Virus record (IMG/VR): IMGVR_UViG_3300036816_000007
Coordinates: 1,839-65,838 of that record
Length of the DNA: 64,000 nucleotides
DNA from: a virus
Reading direction: 5' to 3' (one strand)
The position numbers and the translations under genes were made by a program. A model generated the notes under the pieces. The model was not told the origin of the DNA and did not search any database. It worked only from the letters and a program-made list of their open reading frames with translations. Below, piece by piece: positions 6,504 to 61,505 of this stretch (the stretch's first letter is position 1; each line of letters starts with the position of its first letter).

Positions 6504-8357
6504 CTATTGAATTAGAGCGATAATCTTGCGGCTATCTCCGGCCGATCCTCCCTCTTTTGCGTAACCAATGACCCCAACATCTGTCTCTAACATAAGAGCA
6601 ACAATGTTACCTACCTTTGCGACTTTTTCGCTGGGTATTTTGAATACATTTACAAATGGAGCGCTATTAGAAGCAAGCGCCAAGTAACTTCCGTCAGGAG
6701 TTATCGCTAATCGGTTTGCAGATTGGCTCTTTGCATCTCTTGAATCAGTAGCCCGGTACATCTGATCTCCTCGTTGGCTATATGTTAGAATGTCTGGACT
6801 GTTGTTAGACTGGACTAAAAATAATTTCATTTTGCTTGGATGATACACAGCATCCGATGATTGAACAGGAGTTTTAGTCTGAGTATCAGGAACTTTATTA
6901 AAAACGTCTCCAGCACGCTTATATGTTGTTAAAGTAGCTCCGCCGAAATGCGTAACCGTTAGATAATTTTCGTCATATGAGAAATCAAGACCTCCACCTA
7001 GTCCAGGAGGAACTATAGAAGGGTCTGTAATCTTTGACAATACGTCACCTGAACGTTTGTAAATCAAGATATACGGGGCTACTGTGTAAGAAATTGCTAT
7101 GAATACACCCGAAGGTGAGATCGCAATATTTCTAGGTGCGCTAGAGAGCGGATTAACACTTGGGTCAGCCAGTTTTGTGAACGTATCACCAGTGCGCTTG
7201 TACACCATGAAGTAAGGTGCGACACTGAGTATCATGTAGATGTACGTCCCATCGTTAGCAGCGCGGAGGTATGCAATTGATCCGCCGGGTAACACTGTTG
7301 GGTCAGGTAACTTGGTAAACGTATCACCCGAACGCTTATAGATCATAAGGTAAGGCGCAACACCAATCCCTACATAAAGGTAATCAGCGTTTGGAGAAAA
7401 TGCTAAGGCGTTGGGTAATCCTCCAGGCAGAACGCTTGGATTTGCCAATTTAGTGAACACGTCGCCTGAGCGCTTGTATATCAACAGAAACGGAGTAGCA
7501 TTCGATCCTACAACCATGTAATCGTTTGTCATAGCTATTCCGATGCTCGCCGCAGGAGGCGCTGTCGAGAGCGCGGGCAACAGTTCTATTGGCGGAGTAT
7601 ACATCCTCACCATATCCCCTTGTGCGATATCTTCACTGTAGGTGACGGTCACTTCCGTCTGACCAGGTATTTTCACCTCCCCGCCGCCGCTATCTGCTAA
7701 AAAATCCGATCCTACTTTACGGAAGGTGTAGGGCTTCCCAACCAGTAGATCACCAGCTGCGTAGAAACTACCGTCCTGTTTTTTAAGTGGTGACGCACCT
7801 AATCCATTGATATTAAGCGTCGCTCCAGCGGCATTTGTTACGTGTGGCACAATCGTGATTCCAAATCCGTCCGGTAGCGCTGTAGGCGCAGGACTTAGCG
7901 TAGCGACATATGCCGATGCAGTTCCCGTAGTAACCGCGTATCCTGGCTGACGTATATAATTCGCAGTAACAGCGCTAATCTTTTCGTCGGTGTACGTGTT
8001 AGCACCGCCTAAAGCGTCGTCCGCGTATCCCTGCGCCCTGACGAGAGCATCCGCAATATTAGCGCGTCCCGCCTCGTAGTCATACGCGGTATGATTCCGC
8101 GCCGCCTGCGTTCCTGCCGCCCACCCTTTCGCTGTACCTTCGAATCCACGCGTACATCCAGTGAGCGTATTGCCCGTTTTCCCCGTATAGCGGATTGTCT
8201 CCGCAGTCTCATCGCTTCCCACCGTCACGAGGTTCGGAGCGGCCGGAAGCTTAGACGCATCCAGTACGTCAATACTCGTTGCGGATGCGTTAATATCTGC
8301 GGCGAGCTCCGTTCCCGGGGAATTAATCATCGCAGCGTACATCGGTAATTGCGCCAT
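6504..8357 (-). CDS. tail fibre / receptor-binding protein with a C-terminal beta-propeller
   Basis: The N-terminus IDVLDASKLPAAPNLVTVGSDETAETIRYTGKTGNTLTGCTRGFEGT is typical of Bacillales phage fibre N-termini. The C-terminal half has seven ~46-aa repeats. Confidence 0.75.
   Translation of the reverse strand: MAQLPMYAAMINSPGTELAADINASATSIDVLDASKLPAAPNLVTVGSDETAETIRYTGKTGNTLTGCTRGFEGTAKGWAAGTQAARNHTAYDYEAGRANIADALVRAQGYADDALGGANTYTDEKISAVTANYIRQPGYAVTTGTASAYVATLSPAPTALPDGFGITIVPHVTNAAGATLNINGLGASPLKKQDGSFYAAGDLLVGKPYTFRKVGSDFLADSGGGEVKIPGQTEVTVTYSEDIAQGDMVRMYTPPIELLPALSTAPPAASIGIAMTNDYMVVGSNATPFLLIYKRSGDVFTKLANPSVLPGGLPNALAFSPNADYLYVGIGVAPYLMIYKRSGDTFTKLPDPTVLPGGSIAYLRAANDGTYIYMILSVAPYFMVYKRTGDTFTKLADPSVNPLSSAPRNIAISPSGVFIAISYTVAPYILIYKRSGDVLSKITDPSIVPPGLGGGLDFSYDENYLTVTHFGGATLTTYKRAGDVFNKVPDTQTKTPVQSSDAVYHPSKMKLFLVQSNNSPDILTYSQRGDQMYRATDSRDAKSQSANRLAITPDGSYLALASNSAPFVNVFKIPSEKVAKVGNIVALMLETDVGVIGYAKEGGSAGDSRKIIALIQ
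6587..7565 (-). repeat. seven tandem ~46-aa blade-like repeats inside the fibre gene (approximate limits)
   Basis: A recurring motif appears seven times with decay: APY(L/F/I)(M/L)(I/V)YKR(S/T)GD(T/V)FTKL.DP(S/T)V.P. Confidence 0.7.
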
Positions 8358-24549: not shown

Positions 24550-26250
24550 TTACATCCACTTCGGCTTATTCTTGACTCTATTCTTGCCCGTCTTTGCAAT
24601 ACTTACGGCTTGCTCAAGGGCATCCGGCAAGTCATCGTGCGAGCCTGTGCCGTAATATTCGAACTGTTCAAGCAAAAGCGTATGTTTCCGTGAAAATTGA
24701 ATAGCGCCACTCTCGATATCCGGGAGCAGCGCCTCTATACGGAGCTCTTTACGACTCCGTTGGTGTATTTCCTTAACGCGGGTACTAGCCGGATATCCTG
24801 CGGCTCTCAGCGCCTCTTTCAGCTTCTGTACGAAGAACTCCTGCGCCGCCTGAGCCTCCGCAGCGATTCCATTCGGCTGATAGCGCATAACCTTCTCGAC
24901 GATGACGCGAATAAACTCGTCAGGCTTAACGCGCTCACCGTACGCATCGATAACGTACTTCGTTCCGGTCTTCTTGTGGCGTGCGATCGTAACAATGGCG
25001 GAATAGTCTCCGCGCTGTTTACCCATCGCAAAGTCAACGCCCATGTATACGTCAAATACGTTAGCTGGCGGAGGATATTGCGTTAGGAGTTCACGAACAT
25101 CCGCGCTATCCCAATACGTAAATGACTCCGGATTGAATATCATCGATTCCTCATCGACCGGATTGTTCATGTACTCCGTATTGAACGCCTTCGCTCCGTT
25201 ATCCCATTTCCACGCCATCAACTTCCATATTGGCTGTGCTTCCGGCCATAGTACTACGGCTCCTCGGTCCATTTCCTTGCGATTAGCTTCGTAAAGGGCT
25301 CGTGCGTCCCTAGCGCGTTCATCTTTCGGTCTGTCCGGATCTTTATAGACGAGATGGCACGCTTCCCATAAGTCCATACGCGCGGGCCATTCGATAATCG
25401 CGCGGTAGACACGGCTCTTAAAATCCGAACGGTTGTATAAAACGTCAACAAGGAGCGCTTCGTGATGGACCGTTGTTCCCATGTAGATAAACGCGGTCTT
25501 CTTGCCGCGCGGATCTCCGAGAGGTACGACAGTCTGTGCGAACCAATCCTTGAGCTTCTTCCGTAGTTCCGGAGTCGCCGCGTTAGACTTGATATCTTCC
25601 AAGTCGTCACATACGATCAAATCCGGCCGCACACCGTTCCAGTTACGTCCACGGAGCGCCTGGCCCGTTGAGGCAGCCTCTACCTTCGTAAGCAGCCGTT
25701 TCGTACCATCTTCGCGCGGTTCCCATGCGATAAACTCCGATGAGTTATCTTTCGGATTCTCTTGTTGCTTCGGACTCAGTAACGGACCGAAGTCCGCACG
25801 TAACTTCGCGTTACTCTTGAGCTGCATCGCAATCCAATCGAGGTTGGCGGATGATACCGCAGGCGTCTCCGATATGATGATCTCGTATTTACGCTTTCGA
25901 TACGTAATCTCCCGTATCGGCATCGCCTTGGATAAATACGTTGATTTAGCGTGAGATCGGGGCGCCGCCTCCGCTACCTTATCGTTTGTATGAACGTTGC
26001 TTACATCGTCCATAAGCGCGCAGATTTCACGGTGAAAATCAGGAGCTTCGTCGTACTCCGTAATATCAAACCCGTCCCAGTTTCCGTCGTTGCCGGGATT
26101 CCGCGCATCTGAGAAGTATTCTAGCGCAAATTCGATAAGATTCGTTTCGCAGCGGTGTACCCGTTCTAGGCGCTCATATTCCGCAAGCTGTGCGTCAATA
26201 TCCGCCGCGTCATCCGCTGAAAGGTCGGCGATATCTACGCCTTCAAGCAC
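24550..26250 (-). CDS. terL: terminase large subunit
   Basis: Walker-A-like AAPRSHAKSTYLS, Walker-B-like LIVCDDLED and a C-terminal nuclease region. The 5' end is uncertain (see findings). Confidence 0.85.
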   Translation of the reverse strand: MLEGVDIADLSADDAADIDAQLAEYERLERVHRCETNLIEFALEYFSDARNPGNDGNWDGFDITEYDEAPDFHREICALMDDVSNVHTNDKVAEAAPRSHAKSTYLSKAMPIREITYRKRKYEIIISETPAVSSANLDWIAMQLKSNAKLRADFGPLLSPKQQENPKDNSSEFIAWEPREDGTKRLLTKVEAASTGQALRGRNWNGVRPDLIVCDDLEDIKSNAATPELRKKLKDWFAQTVVPLGDPRGKKTAFIYMGTTVHHEALLVDVLYNRSDFKSRVYRAIIEWPARMDLWEACHLVYKDPDRPKDERARDARALYEANRKEMDRGAVVLWPEAQPIWKLMAWKWDNGAKAFNTEYMNNPVDEESMIFNPESFTYWDSADVRELLTQYPPPANVFDVYMGVDFAMGKQRGDYSAIVTIARHKKTGTKYVIDAYGERVKPDEFIRVIVEKVMRYQPNGIAAEAQAAQEFFVQKLKEALRAAGYPASTRVKEIHQRSRKELRIEALLPDIESGAIQFSRKHTLLLEQFEYYGTGSHDDLPDALEQAVSIAKTGKNRVKNKPKWM

Positions 26251-26441
26251 GTCAAGTAGCGCGGAAAGCTCGTTAAGCCTTGCCGCGCGTTCGTCTCTTC
26301 CGATCCATTTACCGTTAGTCCATGCGATAGATACCGCCCCCCTTCGTAGTTACGTTGAAATTGCGTAGATTTAGCGTGTTTAGGCGCTGACCCTAACGGA
26401 TACACTCCGAACGGGTGAAACGCGCTAATTACACGGTGATT

Positions 26442-26543
26442 TTACGTGATTAGATAGCGTATTAACTTTCCGATAGCCACCGCGCACGTCAATATCGCCA
26501 GTACGACGCCTAAATCCGTGATCTCGCGTTTGAATCGAGCCAT
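26442..26543 (-). CDS. possible 33-aa membrane peptide
   Basis: GGAGG lies 9 nt upstream of the ATG. The peptide MARFKREITDLGVVLAILTCAVAIGKLIRYLIT has one TM segment. Confidence 0.35.
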   Translation of the reverse strand: MARFKREITDLGVVLAILTCAVAIGKLIRYLIT

Positions 26544-26617
26544 GCCGCATCGCCTCCGTAAAGTCCAAAGTTAAAATTTGATACGCGGATTGTAAATGTA
26601 CCAGATGCGGCGGCCGA

Positions 26618-26665
26618 CGAAGGGGGCCTTGGGGGGGGTCACGCCAGCACCGCCGCCCCTCTTCG
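26618..26665. other. GC-rich imperfect inverted repeat with a G8 run
   Basis: CGAAGGGGGC (26618-26627) pairs with GCCCC-T-CTTCG (26655-26665). An alternative pairing is GCGGCGG with CCGCCGC. Confidence 0.5.
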
Positions 26666-26684
26666 CAACCACTCCGTTTATTCA

Positions 26685-26985
26685 TCCGCAATGCATAATC
26701 GTAACGATCCCGTTTAATCACGGATATGCACGGACATGTGCACAAAATCCCGTATACGGTGCAATAGTCCGCTCCGCAAACCCGCGCCACGCCTACGTTT
26801 ATTTACGCTGCATAAACGCGCCTTATACATCGCATATGCATTTCCAGTTATTAACGCGTACAACCCGCGCCGTTATGCGGATTATGCCCGTTAGTAGCTG
26901 GAAGGTTATACGGTCATTTCCCGTACCCTTCCGCGCTGTTTATAATGCCGATATACAGCCGAAAATAGGCGTTATGCATAAACCG
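26685..26985. repeat. dispersed TATGC(A)-type motif cluster in the TerS-TerL gap
   Basis: Instances: AATGCATAA, ATATGCAC, CTGCATAAAC, ATATGCAT, TTATGCGG, TTATGCCC and TTATGCATAAAC. There is no credible ORF in this region. Confidence 0.5.
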
Positions 26986-27125
26986 TCGCACTATAACGTA
27001 GTGAAGCGTTGAGGTGGCGGAAAGTTTCGGGGAGGGTGCGCGGGACGGGCGCGTTGTAGATAAAACGGAGGCTCAGTCGGACTCGGTCGCCTACCCTCGC
27101 GCATCTCCCTTCATATAATGGCGCA

Positions 27126-27518
27126 CTAATCCGCCTCGTCCGACTTCACCCGTTTTATCGTACTAATCCGCTGCATCAACGCATCCAGATCGGTTGCTCC
27201 ATTATCCTTCGTTTCCACTTCGACCTTATCCGTAAGCAATCCGTTAATCTGTAGCGCAAGCTTTGCCATAGCTGCGTTACCATCCCGCATAGCAATCGTA
27301 GATAGCGAGTCGATAAGTTCCGGTAACTTGTCTTGGCTATTGCGAACCATCTGACGTTTTAACTCCGCTTCGAATACGGGGTTCTTCTTCCACTCGAATA
27401 GCGTTGATCGGTGTACTCCGATAATCTCCGCAAGCTCATCGTATGTCTTACCACCACGCTTAGGTTGCGCCATCCACGCTATTGCATCGTGTTGTTCCTG
27501 CGTTAATTGCTTCGCCAT
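27126..27518 (-). CDS. terS: terminase small subunit (HTH type)
   Basis: The N-terminal HTH KTYDELAEIIGVHRSTLFEWKKNP and the position at the head of the packaging genes support the call. Confidence 0.6.
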   Translation of the reverse strand: MAKQLTQEQHDAIAWMAQPKRGGKTYDELAEIIGVHRSTLFEWKKNPVFEAELKRQMVRNSQDKLPELIDSLSTIAMRDGNAAMAKLALQINGLLTDKVEVETKDNGATDLDALMQRISTIKRVKSDEAD

Positions 27519-27600
27519 TACTACGTTCTCCTTCCGTTAAATAAGCGCTAATAACGCGCCTTCCTACGCTCAGGCAAGGCGTAAGATAGACGCGCTAATA

Positions 27601-27771
27601 TTACGTTGATTCTGCGTATTCAGCGAGTGGGTATTGAATGAGAGTGGCGCTCCCGTTACTTCCGCCCCTAACGCAGTACCAGAAAATACCGTTGTTATAT
27701 TCGATGTTATCTACGTTAAGTTTACGCTCCTTTGCGATCTTCTTTCGTAGATCGTCCGTATTAAGCGCCAC
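27601..27771 (-). CDS. hypothetical 56-aa protein (below the track cutoff)
   Basis: The GTG start overlaps the upstream TAG (TAGTG). Hand translation gives VALNTDDLRKKIAKERKLNVDNIEYNNGIFWYCVRGGSNGSATLIQYPLAEYAEST. Confidence 0.45.
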   Translation of the reverse strand: MALNTDDLRKKIAKERKLNVDNIEYNNGIFWYCVRGGSNGSATLIQYPLAEYAEST

Positions 27772-27980
27772 TACTTACGCCTCCAATCGTTAATATCATC
27801 GATCCACATTACGATAATAAACAGCGCGTACACATACGGATTAAGCGCAGTAACCGCCAAGTCTTTCGTTACAGTTACGAGGTCATTGCGTTCTCTAATT
27901 GCAATCGGAATATAGTACGCTAATACTAGGAGCACCAACGCAATATGAACGCCTAAGATAACGAATAGTACGGTTAACAT
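27771..27980 (-). CDS. small membrane protein (2 TM)
   Basis: The sequence MLTVLFVILGVHIALVLLVLAYYIPIAI...YVYALFIIVMWI shows two hydrophobic segments. Confidence 0.6.
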   Translation of the reverse strand: MLTVLFVILGVHIALVLLVLAYYIPIAIRERNDLVTVTKDLAVTALNPYVYALFIIVMWIDDINDWRRK

Positions 27981-28231
27981 ACGCTCACTCTCTCACGTTC
28001 CATAAGCGCCATTAAACCGTTGTGTAGCGAAGCAATATCGTCTACTCGCGCTACAACTTCTCCGTTCTCATATACGATGAAGATGCGGTAACCTTCGTCT
28101 CTGAGCGATGTGATTGCGCCGTGGATAGCGATTCGTGATGCGAATCCAGTTACGTCAAGTCCGTGTGCATAATCGAAACCTTCGTACTTACCGCATACTA
28201 AACGATACATATACGTTCTCCCTCCGCTCAC
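27974..28231 (-). CDS. hypothetical protein, first gene after non-coding element A
   Basis: 85 aa with a GGAGGGAG SD. Confidence 0.55.
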   Translation of the reverse strand: MSGGRTYMYRLVCGKYEGFDYAHGLDVTGFASRIAIHGAITSLRDEGYRIFIVYENGEVVARVDDIASLHNGLMALMERERVSVC

Positions 28232-28348
28232 TTAGCGTTCGCTTAACGTAAGTGAACCGCGTTATTTAATCTTTGACTACATGAGGTACTTCGAAGAGTA
28301 TGCTTCATGTTTCTTGCAGACAAGGGTTTTAGCTCAAAGAATGCTTCG

Positions 28349-28460
28349 TCACTGCGTTCCTAGCTCCATCGCCTGGCGGCTCTGGAACATATAATTGATT
28401 ACGCGTTATACCTTTACCTTAATGATCCCGCGAGGTTTAGTTTGCGAAGCAAAATCAACC
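28349..28460 (-). promoter_or_regulatory. conserved non-coding element, copy A (candidate structured leader RNA or regulatory site)
   Basis: It shares three blocks at identical spacing with 61990..62101. The core is a 34-nt block with one mismatch (28426-28459), which forms a hairpin with a compensatory base change. Confidence 0.6.
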
Positions 28461-28576
28461 GAAGCGGTGGACCTCGTTCTTTTCCGTTTCTTGTTACGTA
28501 GTTATACAAGATAAAGAGTTGTTCAAGCCCTAAAACGGCGGAATCCCGCGTCGCTCTAAGGCCGAAGCCACTTTTG

Positions 28577-28627
28577 AACTATGCAATATTTGATAGGTAA
28601 AACGCTCTAACTATGCAATATTTGATA
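28577..28627. repeat. two perfect 19-bp direct repeats AACTATGCAATATTTGATA, 32 bp apart (iteron/operator-like)
   Basis: The copies are at 28577-28595 and 28609-28627, starting 6 nt past the stop of 28634..29512. Confidence 0.8.
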
Positions 28628-28633
28628 CCCCCT

Positions 28634-29512
28634 CTAGAAGGGAAGATCCGTATCGTCCAGCCCGTGACCACTTTCGGAAGCCTTACGGTGCTGTTCGAAG
28701 TCATAACGCAAAGCCTGCGTATACTCATCGTCATCGAATTTCTGACGGTACATCACGTCTGGATTCACCTTGATTACGGTAACTCCCAACGATTCAGAAC
28801 GCATAATAAAGCCGTTCTTACTCAGCTCCCGTAACCCTCTCCGCACGGTCTGGTCATCTACGCCTAGAAAGCGCGCGAGTGACGCCTGCGTGATAACGTC
28901 GAGTTTGTCCGCTTTCCGCTCGTCTGGATTCGTACATAAGTAACAAAGCCGATAGTGGAAAAACGGAATCATGCAATATAAAAGGCCCGCCGCTTGAATC
29001 GAAAGATTCTTAACGTCAGACCTCGTTTTCATTTGATATATCTTTGTAAATGACTCGCCCTGTTTAAGTGCGCGTCCGATCGTGTGATATTCCGGATGGA
29101 TTGCGTATACCTTGCGCCGTCCCTCTTTATCTTCCGTAAGGATTCCGTATTTGACCAACGAAGAAACAATCGTAGCTGTCATACGCGCTGCCTTTCCGAT
29201 AACCTTCGAAATCTCTGCGGTGCCCATGCGCTTTCCGTTAAGGTAAAGGTCACCCGCGTTATCCATGTGCATATACGGAATTAGCTTCATGACCGCGCCC
29301 AACTCGTTAAGCGAAAGCAGCGTTGTCAGGCTGCGCACAGGTTCGTGATAGGACGTAACGTAGTACTTTGTATTACGTTTGCGTGCGTCTTCTCTTGCAG
29401 CGTACTCCCGTTTCCTGGCGATGTCCTCTTCGGAGATAACGTGGAATCCTTCGAGTGGAACCTCGCTAATCCACGTACCATCTGCGTTTTTGCGCGTAAC
29501 AAATTCGCTCAT
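28634..29512 (-). CDS. double winged-helix DNA-binding protein with an SSB-like C-terminal tip (initiator- or regulator-like)
   Basis: Two wHTH-like segments (TAEISKVIGKAARMTATIVSSLVKYGIL and QASLARFLGVDDQTVRRGLRELSKNGFI). The C-terminus is GLDDTDLPF. Confidence 0.55.
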   Translation of the reverse strand: MSEFVTRKNADGTWISEVPLEGFHVISEEDIARKREYAAREDARKRNTKYYVTSYHEPVRSLTTLLSLNELGAVMKLIPYMHMDNAGDLYLNGKRMGTAEISKVIGKAARMTATIVSSLVKYGILTEDKEGRRKVYAIHPEYHTIGRALKQGESFTKIYQMKTRSDVKNLSIQAAGLLYCMIPFFHYRLCYLCTNPDERKADKLDVITQASLARFLGVDDQTVRRGLRELSKNGFIMRSESLGVTVIKVNPDVMYRQKFDDDEYTQALRYDFEQHRKASESGHGLDDTDLPF

Positions 29513-30096
29513 TAGGAAGCACCTCCGGACACCGATAGCCTACGTCTATAAAGAGCTCGCCGGCCCTCTACTCGCTGTAAATTTCGGTCGAGTTCTCGCA
29601 GCCTTCTCGTCAACTCTAGCCACTCCAACATAACGACCTGCTCATCGTATTCGTCTTCCTTGAACCTCTCAAAATCCTCTATTTCTAATATCAGCCAACG
29701 TCTCTCCTCTTCTAGCTGATGCGCAGCTTCCTCTAATTTATCGAGAGTATCGGACACTGCACTTGTGTGTTCTTCAAAATACATCTTATCTCGGTTAAAC
29801 TTCGGTCGTAACTCATTGATAAGGTACGTTTCGTAAACATCCACGTAGAACATGTTACCTGAGCAGTATAACGAAATGCTTGCAATATCCTTGTAAAAAC
29901 GGATGGAGTCTTTCTTACCACTCAGATGCTCGAGCAGCCTACGACCCAGTGAAGAACTTTTACCAACATAAAGACACAGGCCCTCGCTGTTACGTAGTAC
30001 GTACACGCCGGAGATGCCTAGAAAACTTTCACGTCTATTTAAAAATTCCTCTTTGGAAAATTCTTCGCTTTTAGGTAACGTTACAATTACTCCCAT
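29512..30096 (-). CDS. GIY-YIG domain nuclease with a coiled-coil C-terminus
   Basis: GIY-YIG-type motifs GVYVLRNSEGLCLYVGKSSSLGRRLLEH and YETYLINELRPKFN. By eye the segment is AT-rich. Confidence 0.7.
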   Translation of the reverse strand: MGVIVTLPKSEEFSKEEFLNRRESFLGISGVYVLRNSEGLCLYVGKSSSLGRRLLEHLSGKKDSIRFYKDIASISLYCSGNMFYVDVYETYLINELRPKFNRDKMYFEEHTSAVSDTLDKLEEAAHQLEEERRWLILEIEDFERFKEDEYDEQVVMLEWLELTRRLRELDRNLQRVEGRRALYRRRLSVSGGAS

Positions 30097-30214
30097 ACTA
30101 TCGCTCTCCTCTGCGTAATTTCCGACGTCCAGTGAAGTCAGGGAAAGCGAGTGTCGGAGTATCTCGCGTTCGGCCCGTCAGCCTATTCCCATTTACCTTA
30201 TCACCGGTATATCT

Positions 30215-30243
30215 ATATAACCTTGAGATAGCGTAAAATGTAA
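30215..30243 (-). promoter_or_regulatory. sigma-A-type promoter candidate (TTACAT-N17-TTATAT)
   Basis: The minus strand reads TTACATTTTACGCTATCTCAAGGTTATAT. It lies ~120 nt upstream of the GIY-YIG start and just after a terminator. Confidence 0.5.
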
Positions 30244-30288
30244 GGTACTTTGCAGGAATTTCCGCCATTTTATCGAATTTATTTTCGT

Positions 30289-30468
30289 ATGAAAACGTTA
30301 ATTACAGACACCGAATTGCTGGCGGCCGCCCTCGCACAAGTCCGCGTTACTATCTTCGAACCCGGCGGCCACACGATCGCAGATTACGGCGGAATCATCG
30401 AAAAGTACACGCCAGATTACGTTAAGATTGCCGACACGTATTTTAGGCGCGGCAATCTTCGTATTTAA
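30289..30468 (+). CDS. hypothetical 59-aa protein
   Basis: MKTLITDTELLAAALAQVRVTIFEPGGHTIADYGGIIEKYTPDYVKIADTYFRRGNLRI. The SD is poor. The gene converges on the terminator. Confidence 0.4.
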   Translation: MKTLITDTELLAAALAQVRVTIFEPGGHTIADYGGIIEKYTPDYVKIADTYFRRGNLRI

Positions 30469-30483
30469 GGCGCTGGAGACACG

Positions 30484-30507
30484 AAAAAGACCGGATTAGC
30501 TCCGGTC
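30484..30507 (-). terminator. rho-independent terminator ending the small-gene cassette
   Basis: The minus strand reads GACCGG-AGCTAAT-CCGGTC followed by TTTTTCG. Confidence 0.65.
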
Positions 30508-30597
30508 CCTCTTGAATATTATCCGCAATATCTCCCGCCAACTACGCCTAATGCCCGCCTGCCTGACGATCTTCCGCACATCAACGTGCTTTTTCAT
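30496..30597 (-). CDS. possible 33-aa basic peptide
   Basis: GAGGTAAAAACGG precedes the ATG. The peptide is MKKHVDVRKIVRQAGIRRSWREILRIIFKRDRS. The ORF ends in the terminator loop. Confidence 0.3.
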   Translation of the reverse strand: MKKHVDVRKIVRQAGIRRSWREILRIIFKRDRS

Positions 30598-30688
30598 CCG
30601 TTTTTACCTCGACCCACTCACCGCCCGCCGTCCGTACGTAATTCCGCCCACTCATCCGTTTTCCCACCGCAAATATCCGCTTATTCAT
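30581..30688 (-). CDS. possible 35-aa peptide
   Basis: The ATGAATAA start overlaps the upstream stop, and GGAGG lies 9 nt upstream. The peptide is MNKRIFAVGKRMSGRNYVRTAGGEWVEVKTDEKAR. Confidence 0.35.
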   Translation of the reverse strand: MNKRIFAVGKRMSGRNYVRTAGGEWVEVKTDEKAR

Positions 30689-30884
30689 CCGCTAATACCT
30701 CCTTACGCGCTGTATTAAGATTACGTATCTTCGCTATTTTCTGCGCGGGTGTGTAGTCCGCCTGGTTAACGATCGACTCGACTATGCCTACGAATGTTGC
30801 GTGGATCAGCGCCCGGCGTTGGTCAGGCGCATCAGCCTCCGTATAACTGTTGCGTAATAACGACGCATATGTCTCCGTACTCAT
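30681..30884 (-). CDS. hypothetical protein
   Basis: 67 aa. Its start overlaps the stop of 30881..31147 by 4 nt. Confidence 0.55.
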   Translation of the reverse strand: MSTETYASLLRNSYTEADAPDQRRALIHATFVGIVESIVNQADYTPAQKIAKIRNLNTARKEVLADE

Positions 30885-31147
30885 CTACGAGGCACCTCCC
30901 GAAAGTATTCGTTAATCTGGCGCTCGAGTAACGTATGGCCGCGGATAATCCAACGTGGCTCGCCCGTATAAGCGGCCGGCGTTGTCATGCGCGCGATTGC
31001 GAAGTCACGGCGATTAAATCCGAACTTGGCGAAATGCTTGACGCAGATTACGCGTTTGGTAGGCGTATTAGCGTTGCCCGTGCCGGCGCATCCGTAGCAA
31101 GTGTACACGTCGTTATAGCGGCCAGATCCGCCGCAGCGTTCGCACAT
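30881..31147 (-). CDS. DnaJ-type zinc-finger (2 x CxxCxGxG) protein
   Basis: The N-terminus carries CERCGGSG and CYGCAGTG. Confidence 0.6.
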   Translation of the reverse strand: MCERCGGSGRYNDVYTCYGCAGTGNANTPTKRVICVKHFAKFGFNRRDFAIARMTTPAAYTGEPRWIIRGHTLLERQINEYFREVPRR

Positions 31148-31162
31148 AATACTTCCTCCTTG

Positions 31163-31330
31163 TTAACCGAGTACGTTATTAATTTTTTCTTTCGCTTTTG
31201 CAATTGTCTCGTAATTTCCATCAAATAGAGAAGAAATGTAGGGAGCAAGGATTATCCACCCACCGTCAATTAAGTCGGACATTATTACGAAACCTCTGTG
31301 TCGATATAGTCTACTGCTTCGATTTTTCAA
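31163..31330 (-). CDS. hypothetical small protein, first gene of the cassette
   Basis: The track ORF start (GTG at 31375) lies upstream of the predicted -10. AAGGAG is followed 9 nt later by TTG at 31330. The exact start is uncertain. Confidence 0.4.
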   Translation of the reverse strand: MKNRSSRLYRHRGFVIMSDLIDGGWIILAPYISSLFDGNYETIAKAKEKINNVLG

Positions 31331-31346
31331 CTCAACCATCTCCTTT

Positions 31347-31427
31347 GTCCCGTTTAACGTACCACTTATAAACACAGTATATTATGTCCCGTTTAACGTG
31401 TCAATACATTTTGGCACTTTTAACGTG
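31347..31427. promoter_or_regulatory. three operator-like repeats (GTCCCGTTTAACGT x2 and CTTTTAACGTG)
   Basis: The copies are at 31347-31360, 31386-31399 and 31418-31427. The second lies in the spacer of the minus-strand promoter. The third lies over the -35 position of the XRE promoter. Confidence 0.65.
31376..31404 (-). promoter_or_regulatory. near-consensus sigma-A promoter TTGACA-N17-TATACT
   Basis: The minus strand reads TTGACACGTTAAACGGGACATAATATACT. Confidence 0.7.
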
Positions 31428-31468
31428 ACGAATTTTACGCTATACTAAACGTAGGAGGTGGCAATTCA

Positions 31469-31693
31469 ATGTCCACGTATAAAGTCCGCCTCAAGCTCGA
31501 TGAGTTATTGAAAGAGCGCAACATAGGCGATCGCGAATTCGGCCGCTTAACCGGAATACGCCGCACGTCTGTCGGAGAGATGCGCGCTAACAAGACGTTG
31601 CGGCTTCCGCTTGACAATCTCGCTAAAATATGCGAAGTCCTCAGCGTAGAGATAACGGATGTACTCGAGCTAGAAAAAGAGCCGCGCGATTAA
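31469..31693 (+). CDS. XRE-family HTH regulator
   Basis: The HTH pattern is LKERNIGDREFGRLTGIRRTSVGEMRANK. The SD is AGGAGGTG, and a TATACT -10 lies at 31441-31446. The gene is divergent from the cassette promoter. Confidence 0.75.
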   Translation: MSTYKVRLKLDELLKERNIGDREFGRLTGIRRTSVGEMRANKTLRLPLDNLAKICEVLSVEITDVLELEKEPRD

Positions 31694-32424
31694 GCTGCGG
31701 CCTTTTCTTCGTATAGGGGCGGAGTAACTTCCGTAACTACTTCGATTTCATTGACCGCACCCATCTCGTTAATCCAACGCTTGCCAATACCGACGCAGTT
31801 AACGAAAGGCTCCGTAAGTTCGCCGCCGTTTTCGTAGAGGTTATACGTTTTGACTGCGCTAGGCTCCGTATCACGTATATACTGCGCCTGTCGTGCCTCA
31901 TTGCGGATCTTAGCGCCTTGATCTACGCGCCAATGTTCGTAACTACTACGCTTACGTTTCGTCGGCCTACGGTAGTCCTTACCGTCCACTCCGGTTGATT
32001 GTGCGGCTGACTCAGACGTCTCACGGTCACGGCGGAGGCCTAGCTGCCGTTCGGACATAAACGGATATTCCGTATGTGACACTTTGTACGGATTCGGGTC
32101 CGTAATCTCTTCATATAGCGCGAGATCCGTTAAGCGATCCATTAGCGCGGAATCTGCAGGCGTCATGGCCGGACGATCACCGGGGCATCCTTTCGCTTCC
32201 CATTCGCTGATCTTACGATGGTTAAACTCGCCATGCTCCGCGTAATAATCGCGTTGAATCGCCGCAATGACGTACATACGCGTTTCTCTGTCGCGTAGGT
32301 CGTGCGTCTTGCCTCCGAAATCAAACGGAATAGGCGGCGCGCCTTCCGCCTTAAACTGCGTCTCCATCGCGCTCTCCAACGTAGTAACCAATTGCTCCGT
32401 AATCTCGCGGTAAGTTGTCGTCAT
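31690..32424 (-). CDS. hypothetical protein
   Basis: 244 aa. The start overlaps the stop of the sigma-r4-like gene (ATGA). Confidence 0.55.
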   Translation of the reverse strand: MTTTYREITEQLVTTLESAMETQFKAEGAPPIPFDFGGKTHDLRDRETRMYVIAAIQRDYYAEHGEFNHRKISEWEAKGCPGDRPAMTPADSALMDRLTDLALYEEITDPNPYKVSHTEYPFMSERQLGLRRDRETSESAAQSTGVDGKDYRRPTKRKRSSYEHWRVDQGAKIRNEARQAQYIRDTEPSAVKTYNLYENGGELTEPFVNCVGIGKRWINEMGAVNEIEVVTEVTPPLYEEKAAA

Positions 32425-32828
32425 TAAGCCGCCTCCAATTCGATATTTTCCGTATACTCAACGCTAACCTCTCCGTATTCCCAGCGCTTATAGACCTCCG
32501 CCATTTTCTCCGCTGCTGCTTCGATTAATTGCGTAACGGCTTCGCGAGATACGCCCATCTGACGCGCTGCCTCCGCCTGTGTAACGTCAAATCCGTATAC
32601 GAACGCAATGGCTTCCGTTTGCCTATCGGTGAGGGAGGCGGAGCTTATTGCGCTATGCAGATCAACGAGGATGTCACACGCGGCATAATCCCCGCGGAAT
32701 CGTGCCGAGCTAATCCGGTGGCGGTCGCGTAATAGCGCCTTAACTCCGGCCGCGTCATTGAGCGAGTATTTAACGGAATAGCTGCGCGAACCCTTTTCGA
32801 TATCCACTTTAACGTGTCCCATACGCAA
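32424..32828 (-). CDS. sigma-70 region-4-like transcription regulator (ArpU/RinA-like late activator candidate)
   Basis: The sequence LTDRQTEAIAFVYGFDVTQAEAARQMGVSREAVTQLIEAAAEKM fits a region-4 HTH. Confidence 0.55.
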   Translation of the reverse strand: MRMGHVKVDIEKGSRSYSVKYSLNDAAGVKALLRDRHRISSARFRGDYAACDILVDLHSAISSASLTDRQTEAIAFVYGFDVTQAEAARQMGVSREAVTQLIEAAAEKMAEVYKRWEYGEVSVEYTENIELEAA

Positions 32829-33108: not shown

Positions 33109-33262
33109 CCGCAGCCGCCTCCCCGCTGTCCTCCCACTTCTGCAGCGGAGTCCGATCGTCATATTTGCGTCCTTCTAACGTGTCAATCCGTCCAGCGTAA
33201 TAGCCGGCCTCGTAGCCTTTGCGCCACTCTTCCGCGATGTTAAGCGTAGTTTCCGTGCTCAT
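33089..33262 (-). CDS. hypothetical small protein
   Basis: The ATGA start overlaps the stop of the kinase gene. The protein begins MSTETTLNIAEEWRKGYEAGYYAG. Confidence 0.45.
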   Translation of the reverse strand: MSTETTLNIAEEWRKGYEAGYYAGRIDTLEGRKYDDRTPLQKWEDSGEAAADDERKF

Positions 33263-33840
33263 TCCGGCCAATCACCGCCTAGGAACGCCAGTATTTCGTC
33301 AATCTGGCGGTAGAGGTGCGGAAGGTCACCGTCGTTCGTAATCGTAAAGTCCGCGCTGTATCCGTCAAGCGCCGTCTCCGTGCCGTGCGTAAGGTCGCAG
33401 AGGTTAAAGCGGTCGCCGGACTTAATGGCGCGGTCAATGCGGAGGGCTTCCGGTGCTTCTACGCGGATGAGGACGTAGCCGGCCGCCTTTAGTGCGTCAT
33501 ATTCGTTAGGCTGGCGAACGTCAGTTATTACTGAACGAAAGGCCGCGTGAGGACCGTGCATGTAGAAATCTGCGACGTGCCACGAGGCCACTTCTCCGAC
33601 TCTATCGAGACATTTCCGCACCCAGACGTCAGGATCACGTTCGCGCATCGCCTGGCCGAACCACTGGTATCCTTCGCGCGGCTTCGCGTCAGTCTCGCCG
33701 AACAATTCGTGATAGTAGCGTTTGAGTTCGTCGCCGAATGCGAACGCGGTGTAGCCGTATTTTGACGCGAGATAACGGGCAACTTCGTCCTTGCCGGCGC
33801 GCAGCTTTCCGATCAATCCGATGTTAGGTAACGTAGTCAT
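33259..33840 (-). CDS. deoxynucleoside monophosphate kinase-like P-loop protein
   Basis: P-loop IGLIGKLRAGKDEVARYL. Size and context fit phage dNMP kinases. Confidence 0.55.
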   Translation of the reverse strand: MTTLPNIGLIGKLRAGKDEVARYLASKYGYTAFAFGDELKRYYHELFGETDAKPREGYQWFGQAMRERDPDVWVRKCLDRVGEVASWHVADFYMHGPHAAFRSVITDVRQPNEYDALKAAGYVLIRVEAPEALRIDRAIKSGDRFNLCDLTHGTETALDGYSADFTITNDGDLPHLYRQIDEILAFLGGDWPE

Positions 33841-47281: not shown

Positions 47282-50113
47282 TTACGCAGCCTCCTTCGAT
47301 TTTGGACGTCCGTTTTCGAAATCCCATGCATCCGGACGAATCTCTTCCATCCAGCGTGGTTCGATTACTGTATCGCAGTCAAGCGGGCAGGCAAACGTTG
47401 CGGTATTCGTCATGATATCGGTATACAACGCGACCGTCTCTTCCGTAATCTGATCGGTAGGAGCCGCGTGTTTCTGCTCATCGTGAAGGGTCAGCGTAAA
47501 TTCCCACCCGCGAGCTACTGTCAGTTCGTAATAGCTTCGGATCATACATAGCTTGAGTACGTTCGCGCCGCTACCTTGAATTTCGTGATTGAACGCTGCT
47601 CTTTCGTCGCGTCCTGTTAATCTGATGAGTTGCCAGAACTCGTCGCGCAATCTTTTTAACCTACCGGCTTTTTTAGCGAGATATGGGTCGTCCTTGCCCG
47701 TAATGCCCACAAGTTGCATCAACGATTTAAGACGCTGCCAGTTCTTGCGATATTCCGGAAACCTCCGTTTCTGTCCCCACAACGTCGCCGTCCATCCGTA
47801 CTTGCGGAGATGTTCGAATGACGCGTTGACCATCGTACTGAAACCCGGAAGGATCTCGTCGAATTTCCCGTACGCACTCTTCGCCTGTTCCGGCGTTACC
47901 CCGCGCTTGACCGCAGTCTTAACGAACTGATCCTCAGCTTGACCGTAACCTTTCGCAAGGAACATATCTTTCGTTAGCTTACGGTATGGAACCGCCGTCA
48001 ACCCGTTCTTATACGCCTTTTCGAAACATAGATCGCGGTCGACTTCGAACATGATTGACGCGAACTCTACGTAAGGGTCGAGTCCTCTACGGTACATGTC
48101 CGCGAATATCTCATCGCCATGTTCGACGGCCATTTTATGCGCTTGGAGGCGCGGCTCGATCGAGGATAAGTCGCTGCCGAGAAACGTATGTCCTGGCGGC
48201 GGCTTAAACGTCATACGGACACGTTCGCCTTCCTTTGTTCGAGCTGGTATATTTTGTAAGTTGGTCCCCTTTGCTACGGATTTCTCCGCGCATTCAACGA
48301 GCTTCCGCATCGTATCGAGATAGTTTTCGTCGGTTACCGGACCTGACCGGATGTCATTCGGCTTCCCGCTATATCCTTTCGAGGAGTAACGTCCGGTCGA
48401 AACCATATCGAGCTGCGTATGCAATCGCCCGTCTACGTCGAGAGCCTTCGGTATTTTGTCTACGTAAGTGTTCAGCAGCTTTTCGTACGCGGACACGTTT
48501 GCCAACGGTTTGAGCGCTTCCTCTTCCTCGTAGTAACGTTCGAGAACGTCCTTGGATACCGCGCGCTCTTTCTTCTTGTCCTTAACGATTTGCTTCGTAC
48601 GGTCTTCAATTCCGAGATGATCGTAAATTAAATACCGCAGATGATTATCGTTTGTGAACGAGAACTCCGTTACGTTTAATGGCGCGTGCTCATCGTCGGC
48701 TGGCGCTAAATCCTCCGCCTGTAGTTGCGCAAGTCTCTCGACGGCGCTCGTATATTTCTTGAGCGACGTTTTACCGGCGGATTCACATTCCGCGATTATT
48801 ACGCGTTGCTTTGCCTGCGCTTCTTCATTCCGCGCAATTCTACGGCGCTGTTTATCGATCCAATCCGTTACCTTCGCGGAGTATAATGCGCGGTCCATCT
48901 TGCGTAAGAACTCCGAATCAGTTACGCCATAAGCTTCGATAACATCCGCCTGGGCTTGCGCTAGTTTCGGACGGAGTTCATCGCCAAGCGCCTGCAGATC
49001 GTCGAGATCAATTACGAAGCCCGTGCGCTCGATATTAACGTTGACCTCCGATAAATATTGCGTAATCTCGAAGAAGGACATCGCCAAGTTATCCGTTGCG
49101 ACAATGTTATCGATCTGCCAGCGCGTCAACCACCAGCCTTTGAGTACGTCCCATATCGCGTAGATTCCGACGACTTCGATCGGATGAAGCATCGGTGACT
49201 CCTTCGAGAAAAGATCCTCAAAGGTTGTATCCGGAGCCTCTACGCCGATAATCGATTTATACTTCGTTATGAGCGGCTTCAAAGCGTAAGTGTCTTCGTT
49301 GTCATTAAGCGTTCTTTGCGCAGCTACGGAGTCATATCGAATACCCTGCGGCTCTAGCCCGTCATTAAGCAACATCGCTAAGTCAAACTCCGCGTTATGA
49401 AACGATTTAATTTGCGACGGCAACGACATGAACTTTGCGATAGCTCCGAGCGCCTTTGACCGCGTGCATTGCTTCTCGCCCGTCAGATGTCCGTATGCTA
49501 CGTAATATCCTTCGTTGAGTAGCGGAAGCCATACGGAGTAGCCGCCGGTCAAGTCGAGCATCTTGTCGAGTCCGGATGTTTCCGTATCCCATACGGTAAG
49601 TGATTCCGCGTCTGGAATATCGATACCACGTTCGGCTAGCTTCCGTTTAATCAACGTGTCATTGAAGAGCACGAAGACATTACGGAACCACTCGTCATCC
49701 TTCTGCAGACGCACTTCCTCACGTAATCTCGCGATCATCTTCGGTAACTCCGCGTCATCCGTAATAATGTGGAAGTTATCCGGCTTGGACCGCAGTGTCT
49801 CCGCTACCTTATCCGCGCGCTCATCCGTCTGCTTTTGCCGTTGTAGTTGTTCAGCAGCGCGGATTACGTCTTCCTTCGTTACTTGGCCGCCGGAGGTACG
49901 GAGATTCGGACGATTTCCTGTTTCGCCCGATAATCCTTCGACTAGCTCACGTTGCTTATCCGATAGCGACATCCGCAGTACGCGTTCGATCGCCTCTTCG
50001 TCCGTCTCCTGCGCAGCCTTCTTGCGTTTAGCCGCGTCTGCCACACGTTCCGCCGCTCCGTCATCCGCTGGCGGCCGCAAGTTTAACGTTAATTTTGGCG
50101 CGATATGCGTCAC
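47282..50113 (-). CDS. polA: family A DNA polymerase with a 3'-5' exonuclease domain
   Basis: Exo motif VWDTETSGL, motif A GSDLSSIEPRL, motif B-like RKLTKDMFLAKGYG and motif C LTLHDE. Confidence 0.85.
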   Translation of the reverse strand: MTHIAPKLTLNLRPPADDGAAERVADAAKRKKAAQETDEEAIERVLRMSLSDKQRELVEGLSGETGNRPNLRTSGGQVTKEDVIRAAEQLQRQKQTDERADKVAETLRSKPDNFHIITDDAELPKMIARLREEVRLQKDDEWFRNVFVLFNDTLIKRKLAERGIDIPDAESLTVWDTETSGLDKMLDLTGGYSVWLPLLNEGYYVAYGHLTGEKQCTRSKALGAIAKFMSLPSQIKSFHNAEFDLAMLLNDGLEPQGIRYDSVAAQRTLNDNEDTYALKPLITKYKSIIGVEAPDTTFEDLFSKESPMLHPIEVVGIYAIWDVLKGWWLTRWQIDNIVATDNLAMSFFEITQYLSEVNVNIERTGFVIDLDDLQALGDELRPKLAQAQADVIEAYGVTDSEFLRKMDRALYSAKVTDWIDKQRRRIARNEEAQAKQRVIIAECESAGKTSLKKYTSAVERLAQLQAEDLAPADDEHAPLNVTEFSFTNDNHLRYLIYDHLGIEDRTKQIVKDKKKERAVSKDVLERYYEEEEALKPLANVSAYEKLLNTYVDKIPKALDVDGRLHTQLDMVSTGRYSSKGYSGKPNDIRSGPVTDENYLDTMRKLVECAEKSVAKGTNLQNIPARTKEGERVRMTFKPPPGHTFLGSDLSSIEPRLQAHKMAVEHGDEIFADMYRRGLDPYVEFASIMFEVDRDLCFEKAYKNGLTAVPYRKLTKDMFLAKGYGQAEDQFVKTAVKRGVTPEQAKSAYGKFDEILPGFSTMVNASFEHLRKYGWTATLWGQKRRFPEYRKNWQRLKSLMQLVGITGKDDPYLAKKAGRLKRLRDEFWQLIRLTGRDERAAFNHEIQGSGANVLKLCMIRSYYELTVARGWEFTLTLHDEQKHAAPTDQITEETVALYTDIMTNTATFACPLDCDTVIEPRWMEEIRPDAWDFENGRPKSKEAA

Positions 50114-57907: not shown

Positions 57908-58066
57908 TTACGTAATTAATTGGACAGATTTAGGTAAAAAGTGGTCCGAAATATGATTGTCAATCAGATTGTCAAGTCGCATTTTGTCGAAGTCCGTGTC
58001 GATTGCGTTAACAGCGTAATTGTCCAACTCCCGAATGCTCCCGTTTTCGCCGTTTTTCGTTTTCAC
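57908..58066 (-). CDS. hypothetical 52-aa protein with (L/I)DN repeats (below the track cutoff)
   Basis: The GTGA start overlaps the stop of the loader gene. Hand translation gives MKTKNGENGSIRELDNYAVNAIDTDFDKMRLDNLIDNHISDHFLPKSVQLIT. Confidence 0.5.
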   Translation of the reverse strand: MKTKNGENGSIRELDNYAVNAIDTDFDKMRLDNLIDNHISDHFLPKSVQLIT

Positions 58067-61154: not shown

Positions 61155-61505
61155 CTACGCGCCTAATTTAACGGTAAACTCAGGCGATAAGCCAGCGTTA
61201 ACAGCCGTAAGTATCACCGCCGTCGTTTCGCGGATCGCTGCGCCAAGTTCCGTCAGGTTCGTTACGTCAAACTCCGCGGCCGTTCGTATCCTCACGCTAT
61301 CGATAAGCGCAGTCAGGCCGGCGGTTGTCAGCGGGTAATACCCGATCTCATCCCAACGTTCGCGTATCGGCGGGGGCTCCGCGCCTTCAACCGCTTTATA
61401 TCCGGGCGCCTTCGTAGGGTCTACTAGTTTGCGCTGCAGGACGATGAAGTTGTGCGCGTCCGTTTTGAGTGCGTAATTTTGCGTGATTTTAACGTTGTTT
61501 AACAT
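61155..61505 (-). CDS. hypothetical protein
   Basis: 116 aa track ORF. Confidence 0.5.
   Translation of the reverse strand: MLNNVKITQNYALKTDAHNFIVLQRKLVDPTKAPGYKAVEGAEPPPIRERWDEIGYYPLTTAGLTALIDSVRIRTAAEFDVTNLTELGAAIRETTAVILTAVNAGLSPEFTVKLGA

Follow-up and report, generated by a model that had tools for sequence, protein, structure and literature searches.

The 64,000-nucleotide stretch of viral DNA analyzed here (the window) encodes on its minus strand a 292-residue double winged-helix protein (28634-29512; PHROG 9501, a family of unknown function) that is, with a probability we put at roughly one half, a regulator of the phage's late operon encoded next to its own operator, part of a conserved element that heads the packaging genes. 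The protein would regulate the operon made up of small ORFs, terS and terL, probably as an upstream activator or gate, and would work jointly with a 134-residue sigma-region-4 protein encoded in synteny with it. We infer both the binding of DNA by the 292-residue protein and the direction in which it regulates. In part of its family the protein also ends in a tail resembling the C-terminal tip of SSB, the bacterial protein that binds single-stranded DNA, which may tie the control site to replication.

The start of the gene overlaps the stop codon of an upstream GIY-YIG gene (TAATG), and its own stop codon occupies 28634-28636, immediately after codons for a C-terminus that reads ...ESGHGLDDTDLPF. 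The AlphaFold2 model of the protein (mean pLDDT 81.6, pTM 0.74) contains two tandem units of helix-turn-helix plus beta-wing, at residues ~56-145 and ~160-250, in agreement with the two winged-helix segments that the initial annotation had recognized in the translation. The predicted chain starts with a beta/alpha module, continues with two winged-helix domains that are not identical, and closes with a helix followed by a disordered acidic tail. The tail residues, 283-292, are modeled with low confidence, pLDDT falling below 50 at residues 283-285 and staying low across the last ~12 residues (10-residue block means of 52 and 49). Profile searches of Pfam and the PDB returned winged-helix matches of the regulator type (HTH_24, MarR, TrmB, Crp and SlyA). 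On the second winged helix Pfam HTH_24 passes its threshold (22.3 bits against a cut-off of 21.9), and Pfam MarR, TrmB and Crp_2 fall 0.2-0.5 bits short of their own cut-offs. MarR, SlyA and TrmB, the best sequence matches of this second domain, nevertheless carry a single winged helix in each chain and act as homodimers on palindromes, whereas the 292-residue protein has two different ones and is accompanied by direct repeats. Searches of NCBIfam and PADLOC gave only generic winged-helix and Csa3-type matches; neither Pfam nor the PDB fold search gave a match to SSB or to an OB fold, the AlphaFold2 model consisting of winged helices, and no match to sigma region 4, RinA or ArpU was found in Pfam, PHROG or NCBIfam. 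The protein is probably a site-specific DNA-binding protein of the phage. The PHROG 9501 family comprises 648 clusters at 50% identity, and a search of a phage collection gave no match to DNA near-identical to the window.

Just 6 nt beyond the stop codon lies the first of two perfect 19-bp direct repeats. Repeat 1, the closer to the stop codon (28609-28627; TATCAAATATTGCATAGTT in the sense of the gene), is identical to repeat 2 (28577-28595), which follows it at a period of 32 bp, or three helical turns; on the plus strand both copies read AACTATGCAATATTTGATA. With this spacing two protomers would share one face of the DNA. No third copy exists in the 64 kb at up to 3 mismatches, shuffled sequences giving an expectation of 0.02 matches. 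All 31 of the 31 related loci have exactly one repeat pair, with a period of 31-33 bp, and the pair is perfect or near-perfect throughout (one mismatch in locus L006); in the 403 kb of window and loci combined there are just 5 other short-range direct repeats that are perfect over 14 bp or more. Across lineages the repeats are asymmetric and 17-26 bp long and show no consistent dyad symmetry. Their sequence co-varies with the recognition helices of the protein: loci grouped by a common repeat sequence have recognition-helix residues in common, in both winged helices. The repeats, their period and their distance from the stop codon are thus as first described, and the comparison adds that the pair is conserved and varies together with the protein. 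We regard it as the putative cognate site of the 292-residue protein.

The repeats are followed on the minus strand by two further conserved features. A box extending from repeat 2 to a bipartite motif (28537-28576; cAAAAGTGGC..CCTTAGAGC..GGGAT..GCC) is also kept in the Bacillus phages KLEB27-1 and phi18-2. The single-copy bipartite motif itself (28501-28536) consists of GTTTT (28536-28532), a 13-nt spacer and CTCTTTATCTT (28518-28508), after which comes a -10-like hexamer, TATAAC (28506-28501). In the form GTTTT-N13-CTCTTATCTT this motif heads the terS/terL operon with the repeats upstream at a near-constant distance. GTTTT and CTCTT are 18-19 nt apart (22 loci). Most loci have 58-64 nt from the end of repeat 2 to CTCTT; L013, L015 and L021, with 77-83 nt, have about two turns more. 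The 64-kb window has the bipartite motif once, as does each of the 22 loci with the pattern, where all matches overlap; no second copy of either the repeats or the motif was found elsewhere. Taken together, repeat 1, repeat 2, the conserved box and GTTTT-N13-CTCTTATCTT appear to form a composite control element of ~130 bp that is present once per genome. We call the bipartite motif promoter-like on its geometry and position; to our knowledge it fits no class of promoter, and a scan for the sigma-70 consensus found no promoter on the gene strand in 28232-28640. From the fixed register of the repeats with this single-copy motif we infer that the protein binds at the late promoter region.

Beyond the motif lies the ORF-free leader of the late and packaging operon (28232-28500, minus strand), which in all related loci measures 350-600 nt. 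Because RNAalifold found 0 conserved pairs in the ~150 nt after the repeats and single-sequence folds of this region disagree (z-scores from -4.9 to +1.7), we do not claim an RNA element; Rfam likewise gave no match at gathering thresholds anywhere in the window. The folds of some loci do contain a terminator-like hairpin between repeat 2 and a T-run, which complicates the activator model.

The late operon opens (27126-28231, minus strand) with three small ORFs (27974-28231, 27771-27980 and 27601-27771) and the gene for the small terminase subunit, terS (27126-27518, minus strand). The 292-residue gene stands immediately upstream of this operon in 27 loci, within a conserved order of dNMP kinase, sigma-region-4 protein, p244, a variable stretch, the 292-residue gene, the repeats, the leader, terS and terL. 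In the window the two conserved syntenic partners are the 134-residue sigma-70 region-4 protein (32424-32828, minus strand; Sigma70_r4) and the 244-residue protein p244 (31690-32424, minus strand; PHROG 13088); phages Tripp, KLEB27-1 and phi18-2 have annotated sigma factors at the matching position. Rearranged loci bear on which of its neighbors the repeat pair belongs with. In phi18-2 an inserted cassette separates the gene from the pair, which is found ~340 nt upstream of terS; in KLEB27-1 a cassette again intervenes, leaving the pair at the operon's head, 3 kb downstream of the gene; and in Clostridium phage FA67 the pair is upstream of the gene, which there precedes an ORF matching the window's terL. 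Judged by these positions, the repeats track the late operon and not the 292-residue gene.

The arrangement resembles that of characterized late regulators in two respects. Late activators of other Gram-positive siphophages are encoded upstream of terS, RinA, ArpU and Alt of TP901-1 having their genes likewise directly upstream of a terS-led late operon, and the repeated sites of Alt and phi29 p4 likewise precede the late start by tens to more than 100 bp, Alt binding repeats at -76 to -32 and p4 binding at -58 to -104 (PMC3152322). The distance from the repeats of the window to any start downstream of them would be ~85-120 bp, long for a simple activator, and this counts against the reading. 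RinA, ArpU, Alt and p4 also have no sequence relationship to the 292-residue protein. RinA and ArpU are ~140 residues long and sigma-region-4-like, a description that fits the neighboring 134-residue gene and not the 292-residue protein; by its size and region-4 match the 134-residue protein would be a late regulator of the RinA/ArpU kind. Unlike the late activators, the 292-residue protein combines two winged helices and an SSB-like tail with exactly one pair of perfect repeats, spaced by three turns. The initial annotation had offered three roles, a second origin, a late switch or a decoy; the conserved element at the head of the late operon and the sigma-region-4 synteny fit the late switch best, and the origin was not supported, as discussed below.

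The C-terminal tip of SSB is the universal bacterial handle that brings repair and restart enzymes to single-stranded DNA. The last ten codons of the 292-residue gene (28637-28666, minus strand) encode HGLDDTDLPF, a disordered acidic tail that resembles the host SSB C-terminus IDISDDDLPF. The protein ends DDTDLPF and thereby has what marks a bacterial SSB terminus, an acidic tip of the D-D-D-[IL]-P-F type after a disordered linker. Chromosomal SSBs of Paenibacillus and Cohnella terminate ...PIDISDDDLPF, and the ten-residue consensus of the phage tails is [FVI][DG][IVL][DT]D[EAD][ED]LP[FY]. The resemblance first proposed for the terminal 4-6 residues thus spans ~10, back to position -9, and includes the hydrophobic/acidic IDI alternation. 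A search for the same tail on homologues found the P[FY] ending in 40 of 41, down to 40% identity. Among 49 distinct tails, position -2 is L in 44 and position -1 is P in all 49, while 27 tails end in F and 22 in Y; YPY and IPF variants are also seen, and one relative ends PDISDDGLPS. Endings of the form [LIMVYF]P[FYW] occur in 21 of 702 six-frame ORFs (at least 60 residues, 30 related loci), every one of them a homologue of the 292-residue protein. The tail is missing from most of the wider family, in which relatives without it still have the repeats, and it appears to be an addition limited to the Paenibacillus-phage branch. The phage has an SSB-tail-bearing protein of its own, of 262 residues, considered as a possible OB-fold SSB, with a confident model (pLDDT 86) and no significant PDB match; co-variation of the two tails was considered and rejected, as LP[FY] is kept on the 292-residue protein where the 262-residue protein ends VNF or INF.

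What the tail shares with the bacterial SSB tip is a disordered acidic C-terminus with an L-P-F/Y end; it differs in being carried by a predicted double-stranded, sequence-specific winged-helix protein without an OB fold and in having a terminal Tyr in nearly half of its variants. The tail would dock into the SSB-tail-binding pocket of a host or phage replication or repair protein, and we propose that the late-operon control site would in this way be tied to replication.

The same components could be read as a secondary origin, at which an iteron-type initiator binds the two repeats and its tail brings in PriA or a helicase to assemble a replisome; we consider this unlikely. The iteron initiators RepE, pi, RepA, lambda O and Inc18 RepE/RepR do share tandem winged helices, asymmetric repeats of ~20 bp and a gene-adjacent site with the system described here, and the modeled tandem domains and asymmetric 17-26 bp direct repeats would suit one monomer per repeat. 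The second winged helix alone gives weak matches to PHROG 'replication initiation O-like' proteins (E-values of 6e-5 to 6e-3), the same domain matches Pfam RepL below the cut-off (19.6 bits), and some BFVD fold matches are named replication initiator or protein O (TM 0.39-0.45). In addition, a family A polymerase is among the phage's gene products, the SSB tail serves replication and repair as a docking peptide, and Inc18 plasmids have oriR directly downstream of repR/repE: the pIP501/pAMbeta1 origin lies just past rep and requires transcription, Pol I and the primosome (PMC4981023). Searches by fold and profile for relatives among Rep, O and DnaD proteins, however, gave generic winged-helix matches only; the top 50 PDB fold matches and the PDB profile matches included no Rep, pi or RepE structure, and Pfam gave no Rep_3 or phage-O match. 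The iteron reading of the initial annotation is therefore not borne out by any specific similarity to Rep, pi, RepE or lambda O. Nor does the site resemble an origin: there are two repeats and no third in 64 kb, the flank has no unwinding element or A+T-rich stretch (GC ~47%), and cumulative GC skew shows no inflection there. The site also lies outside the replication module, whose genes for loader, helicase, primase and polymerase are 25-30 kb away and which includes a phrog_154 'replication initiation protein' of its own (61155-61505). Association of the repeats with the late operon rather than the gene, and absence of the tail from most of the wider family, further count against an origin.

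For the late-operon regulator itself, an alternative concerns the tail only: LP[FY] could be a ClpXP-type degradation tag that sets the lifetime of the protein instead of a docking peptide for SSB partners, which we think improbable. For SsbA of Streptococcus mutans, the three terminal residues, LPF, suffice for degradation by ClpXP, and LPY is tolerated (PMC5143411). The phage tails have just such a C-terminal L-P-F or L-P-Y, their most invariant positions being L, P and F/Y, with F and Y about equally frequent. S. mutans strains differ, however, in whether they recognize LPF, and E. coli and S. gordonii do not recognize it (PMC5143411). The likeness to SSB, moreover, reaches position -9 through the IDI pattern, which a three-residue degron would not need, and the occurrence of YPY and IPF variants also argues against a tag.

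We give still less credence to a fork barrier or switch to late-mode replication, in which the protein, bound to the two phased repeats, would halt forks where the early genes meet the late ones and the tail would recruit restart or recombination factors (PriA, RecG, RecQ and RecJ), so that a stalled fork is turned to concatemer-producing replication upstream of the packaging genes. B. subtilis RTP at its Ter sites offers one comparison. The site does coincide with the early/late boundary, and the repeats do have a direction; SSB-tail partners work at arrested forks (PMC3000357), and G38P of SPP1, bound at the late origin oriR and the other comparison, is proposed to stall the fork and trigger recombination-dependent replication (PMC3485210). 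The case is nevertheless one of analogy and leaves both the register with the bipartite motif and the sigma-region-4 synteny unexplained, and relatives without the tail retain the repeats.

It is very unlikely that the protein is a packaging accessory that helps terminase find repeats within a pac or cos region, even though the element is always upstream of terS/terL and small terminase subunits and lambda Nu1 use (winged) helix-turn-helix domains to bind repeated sites close to their own genes: a separate small terminase is present; terS stands at the right end of the linear record in Tripp and, by terS match, in phi18-2, so that the genome would end after terS, 1-2 kb from the repeats; and the conserved, ORF-free terS-terL gap of 0.6-1.3 kb, which in the window spans 26251-27125, is a better candidate packaging site.

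Assuming a regulator of the late operon, we tentatively suggest, as a possibility short of a probable one, that the tail summons enzymes of the SSB interactome (PriA, RecG, RecQ, RecJ and DnaE) to one duplex site without single-stranded DNA, coupling late transcription or packaging to replication or converting passing forks to concatemer-producing replication. These enzymes are among the SSB-tail interactome of B. subtilis (PMC3000357); S. aureus PriA showed no binding to the SsbA tail peptide in vitro (PMC5531588). Precedent for coupling late transcription to replication by a C-terminal peptide comes from the T4 gp45 clamp with gp33 and gp55 (PMC3152322), and a similar one from N4 SSB with its C-terminal activating region (PMC2784036). 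The T4 and N4 tails have other sequences and bind the sliding clamp or RNA polymerase, whereas the peptide here is that of the SSB tip. A limited literature search returned no relevant paper on phage proteins that mimic the SSB tail and no described case of an SSB handle on a site-specific, duplex-binding phage protein. We know of no transcription factor that uses an SSB tail.

Independently of the tail, the PHROG 9501 family, its two-repeat putative operator and a late-operon control element are now defined for phages of Paenibacillus, Bacillus and Clostridium, a widespread group with uncharacterized late regulation. If the tail is functional, it would represent a natural retargeting of the SSB interactome to a defined locus and would provide Gram-positive siphophages with a simple link from phage replication to late gene expression.

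The minus-strand ORF at 28634-29512 encodes a protein of 292 aa ending in ...ESGHGLDDTDLPF. Its confident AlphaFold2 model (pLDDT 81.6, pTM 0.74, from an alignment of 37 sequences) consists of a short N-terminal beta/alpha module, two helix-turn-helix-plus-wing units spanning residues ~56-145 and ~160-250, then a C-terminal helix (residues 263-281) and a final tail modeled at low confidence. Pfam matches the second winged-helix unit: HTH_24 exceeds its threshold; MarR, TrmB and Crp score slightly under theirs. By sequence, AlphaFold2 and Pfam, the ORF, its tail, the double winged helix and the adjacent repeats all lie where the initial annotation had placed them.

That annotation had likened the tail to the tip of bacterial SSB, a likeness that holds and extends further than proposed. 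In a genome scan, every chromosomal OB-fold SSB recovered from Paenibacillus and Cohnella ended in ...PIDISDDDLPF, an ending typical of Gram-positive SSBs (PMC5531588), and the tail's likeness to the host SSB end covers ~10 residues, reaching beyond the last four into the IDI stretch, where hydrophobic and acidic residues alternate. The consensus of 49 distinct tails is [FVI][DG][IVL][DT]D[EAD][ED]LP[FY]. A protein search gave 41 homologues, the named ones all from Paenibacillus and the others on 57-68 kb contigs; position -1 is always proline in their alignment, and 40 of them, with identities down to 40%, end in P[FY]. One relative ends in PDISDDGLPS. As background, the 702 ORFs with 60 aa or more in 30 related loci include 21 with an [LIMVYF]P[FYW] ending, all of them this protein. 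Farther out the tail is mostly lacking: a profile search over 1.84 billion cluster representatives retrieved 648 relatives, and of the best 150 just two or three clusters, the closest ones, have it, most others ending in a basic stretch. It is also absent from the P. larvae phage Tripp, the Bacillus phages KLEB27-1 and phi18-2, the Clostridium phage FA67 and the related IMG/VR loci L021 and L023-L026. From this distribution the SSB-like tail is a branch-specific addition.

The ten-residue mimicry points to a putative partner that is either a host pocket for the SSB tail or a phage protein reading the same peptide; PriA of S. aureus, however, did not bind the SsbA tail peptide in vitro (PMC5531588). 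A second protein of the phage has a similar end: the 262-aa product of 52170-52958 (minus strand, replication module, PHROG 6883) ends ...PEILEEEFPF, and phenylalanine is the last residue in 120 of 120 listed homologues. Its relatives carry host-SSB-like tails such as IDISDDDLPF in 47 of 80 viral loci and PPVNF in others; its AlphaFold2 model, though confident (pLDDT 86), has no significant fold match in the PDB, and the protein may represent a novel type of SSB-like or hub protein in phages. The tail of the winged-helix protein stays LP[FY] whichever of the two endings these relatives have, which argues that its partner reads a host-type tip. A genuine rival is that the tail is a ClpXP degron, since a C-terminal LPF or LPY acts as one in some strains of S. 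mutans (PMC5143411). There is precedent for late transcription driven by the tail of a replication protein in the T4 gp45 clamp with gp33/gp55 (PMC3152322) and in the C-terminal activating region of N4 SSB (PMC2784036), although the peptides in both differ from the tail described here.

The window is phage DNA in which every gene but one lies on the minus strand. From the replication end, the helicase loader (58063-58839), a DnaB-type helicase (56442-57800), primase (55094-56095) and a family A DNA polymerase (47282-50113) are followed by ribonucleotide reductase and thymidylate synthase, dNMP kinase (33259-33840), a 134-aa protein with sigma-70 region 4 (32424-32828) and a 244-aa protein (31690-32424, PHROG 13088). 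A variable cassette (29512-31690) precedes the winged-helix gene, which is followed by a 400-nt ORF-free stretch containing the repeats (28232-28633), three small ORFs (27601-28231), terS (27126-27518), terL (24550-26250) and, below 24550, large ORFs presumed to be virion genes. By this gene order the winged-helix gene, 25-30 kb away from the replication genes, is the last before the packaging/late operon. The order dNMP kinase, sigma-region-4 protein, 244-aa protein, variable segment, winged-helix gene, repeats, leader, terS and terL recurs in phages of Paenibacillus and Bacillus, and depositors annotated a sigma factor at this locus in Tripp, KLEB27-1 and phi18-2. The 134-aa and 244-aa pair (31690-32828, minus strand), kept upstream in phages of both genera, are probably core late-transcription factors.

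Several other features of this arrangement deserve mention. Within the cassette, the GIY-YIG nuclease gene (29512-30096, minus strand) lies directly upstream of the winged-helix gene, its stop overlapping the next start (TAATG); not all related loci have it (L005, L007 and L008 do), so it looks like a mobile insertion. The sole plus-strand gene encodes an XRE-type (Cro/C1-type HTH) protein (31469-31693) and adjoins a second perfect direct repeat (31346-31360 and 31385-31399; 15 bp, 39-bp period, TGTCCCGTTTAACGT), probably its operator; L001 and L003 have similar repeats with a period of 39-40 bp. A 66-nt unit repeated three times in tandem at 7160-7501 (138-nt spacing, 64-76% identity), within a 617-aa ORF (6504-8357), is probably a repeated protein domain of a tail or fibre gene. 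The ORF-free gap of ~870 bp between terS and terL (26251-27125) measures 0.6-1.3 kb in phages with the same terS type and contains conserved non-coding blocks; as terS occupies the right-hand end of the linear record in Tripp and, by terS match, in phi18-2, this gap probably holds the genome termini, a terminal repeat or the packaging site.

On the gene strand, TATCAAATATTGCATAGTT occurs twice (28627-28609 and 28595-28577) as a perfect 19-bp repeat with a period of 32 bp, beginning 6 nt past the stop codon, as first annotated, and a pair is present in every related locus. Allowing up to three mismatches, the 64 kb contain no third copy (0.02 matches expected in shuffled sequence). In each of the 26 IMG/VR loci there is a perfect direct repeat of 14-26 bp (one mismatch in L006; 17-26 bp except in L011 and L026) with a period of 31-33 bp, starting 1-16 nt past the stop; in Tripp, whose protein is 21% identical, the copies measure 23 bp, their period is 31 bp and the pair begins 6 nt past the stop. 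When perfect short-range repeats of any sequence were scanned for, each locus gave exactly one such pair, and just five further perfect repeats of 14 bp or longer turned up in 403 kb. Apart from a common core, ATAYTGC, the repeat sequence varies between lineages, and in a group comparison, confounded by phylogeny, shared repeats go with shared recognition-helix residues in both winged helices, the covariation predicted for a cognate protein-site pair. The repeats lack consistent dyad symmetry, which fits binding of one two-domain protomer per repeat, the two presumably three helical turns apart on the same DNA face.

The pair is found ~340 nt upstream of terS in phi18-2, on the far side of an inserted cassette whose genes run on the opposite strand, and 3 kb downstream of the gene in KLEB27-1; in FA67 it is upstream of the gene, which directly precedes an ORF matching the window's terL. 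Gene and repeats being split in these phages, the repeats track the head of the late operon rather than the gene's 3' end. Repeat 2 is followed by a composite element kept even in the Bacillus phages: AAAGTGGC..CTTAGAGC..GGGAT..GCC, GTTTT, 13 nt and CTCTTATCTT, usually with a TATAAx-like hexamer next. The spacing hardly varies: GTTTT and CTCTT are 18-19 nt apart (22 loci), and CTCTT lies 58-64 nt from the end of repeat 2 in most loci, a distance ~two helical turns greater in L013, L015 and L021 and, by position, also greater in L009. The window has a single bipartite motif (28536-28508, gene strand), and each of the 22 related loci where the pattern was found likewise has one, counting overlapping matches as one. 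Two invariant blocks at a fixed offset, in single copy at the head of a ~28-kb co-directional operon, are what would be expected of a dedicated late promoter; the motif has no match to the sigma-70 consensus, as a non-canonical, factor-dependent promoter would explain.

Most likely, then, the 292-aa protein would regulate the late operon through the two repeats, together with the sigma-region-4 protein. Gram-positive siphophages typically have a late activator gene (RinA, ArpU, Alt) immediately before terS; RinA has limited similarity to sigma region 4, the repeats bound by Alt lie at -76 to -32, and phi29 p4 binds at -58 to -104 (PMC3152322). A less likely role as a fork barrier or late-replication switch, by analogy with SPP1 G38P at oriR (PMC3485210), would be compatible with such regulation. 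The initial proposal of origin iterons with the 292-aa protein as initiator of a second origin is weak, since the repeats number only two and lack an A+T-rich flank, Pfam, PDB-profile and fold searches gave no Rep or O homology, and a separate match to a replication initiation protein lies inside the replication module. That match, a small ORF at 61155-61505 upstream of the helicase loader (PHROG 154, E = 5e-12), lies near a 38-nt imperfect direct repeat (62009-62046 and 62328-62365; 76% identity, 319 bp apart), and together they are a candidate primary origin region.

Of the initial interpretation, the tail as a real mimic and the repeats as a real site stand; an operator within a control element of the late operon is the best reading of that site, in preference to origin iterons. 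Systems of this kind, in which a late regulator has its operator upstream of terS, are known. New are the family of the 292-aa protein, the arrangement of two repeats three turns apart and in fixed register with a bipartite motif present in single copy and, above all, the graft of an SSB tip onto a predicted duplex-binding protein.
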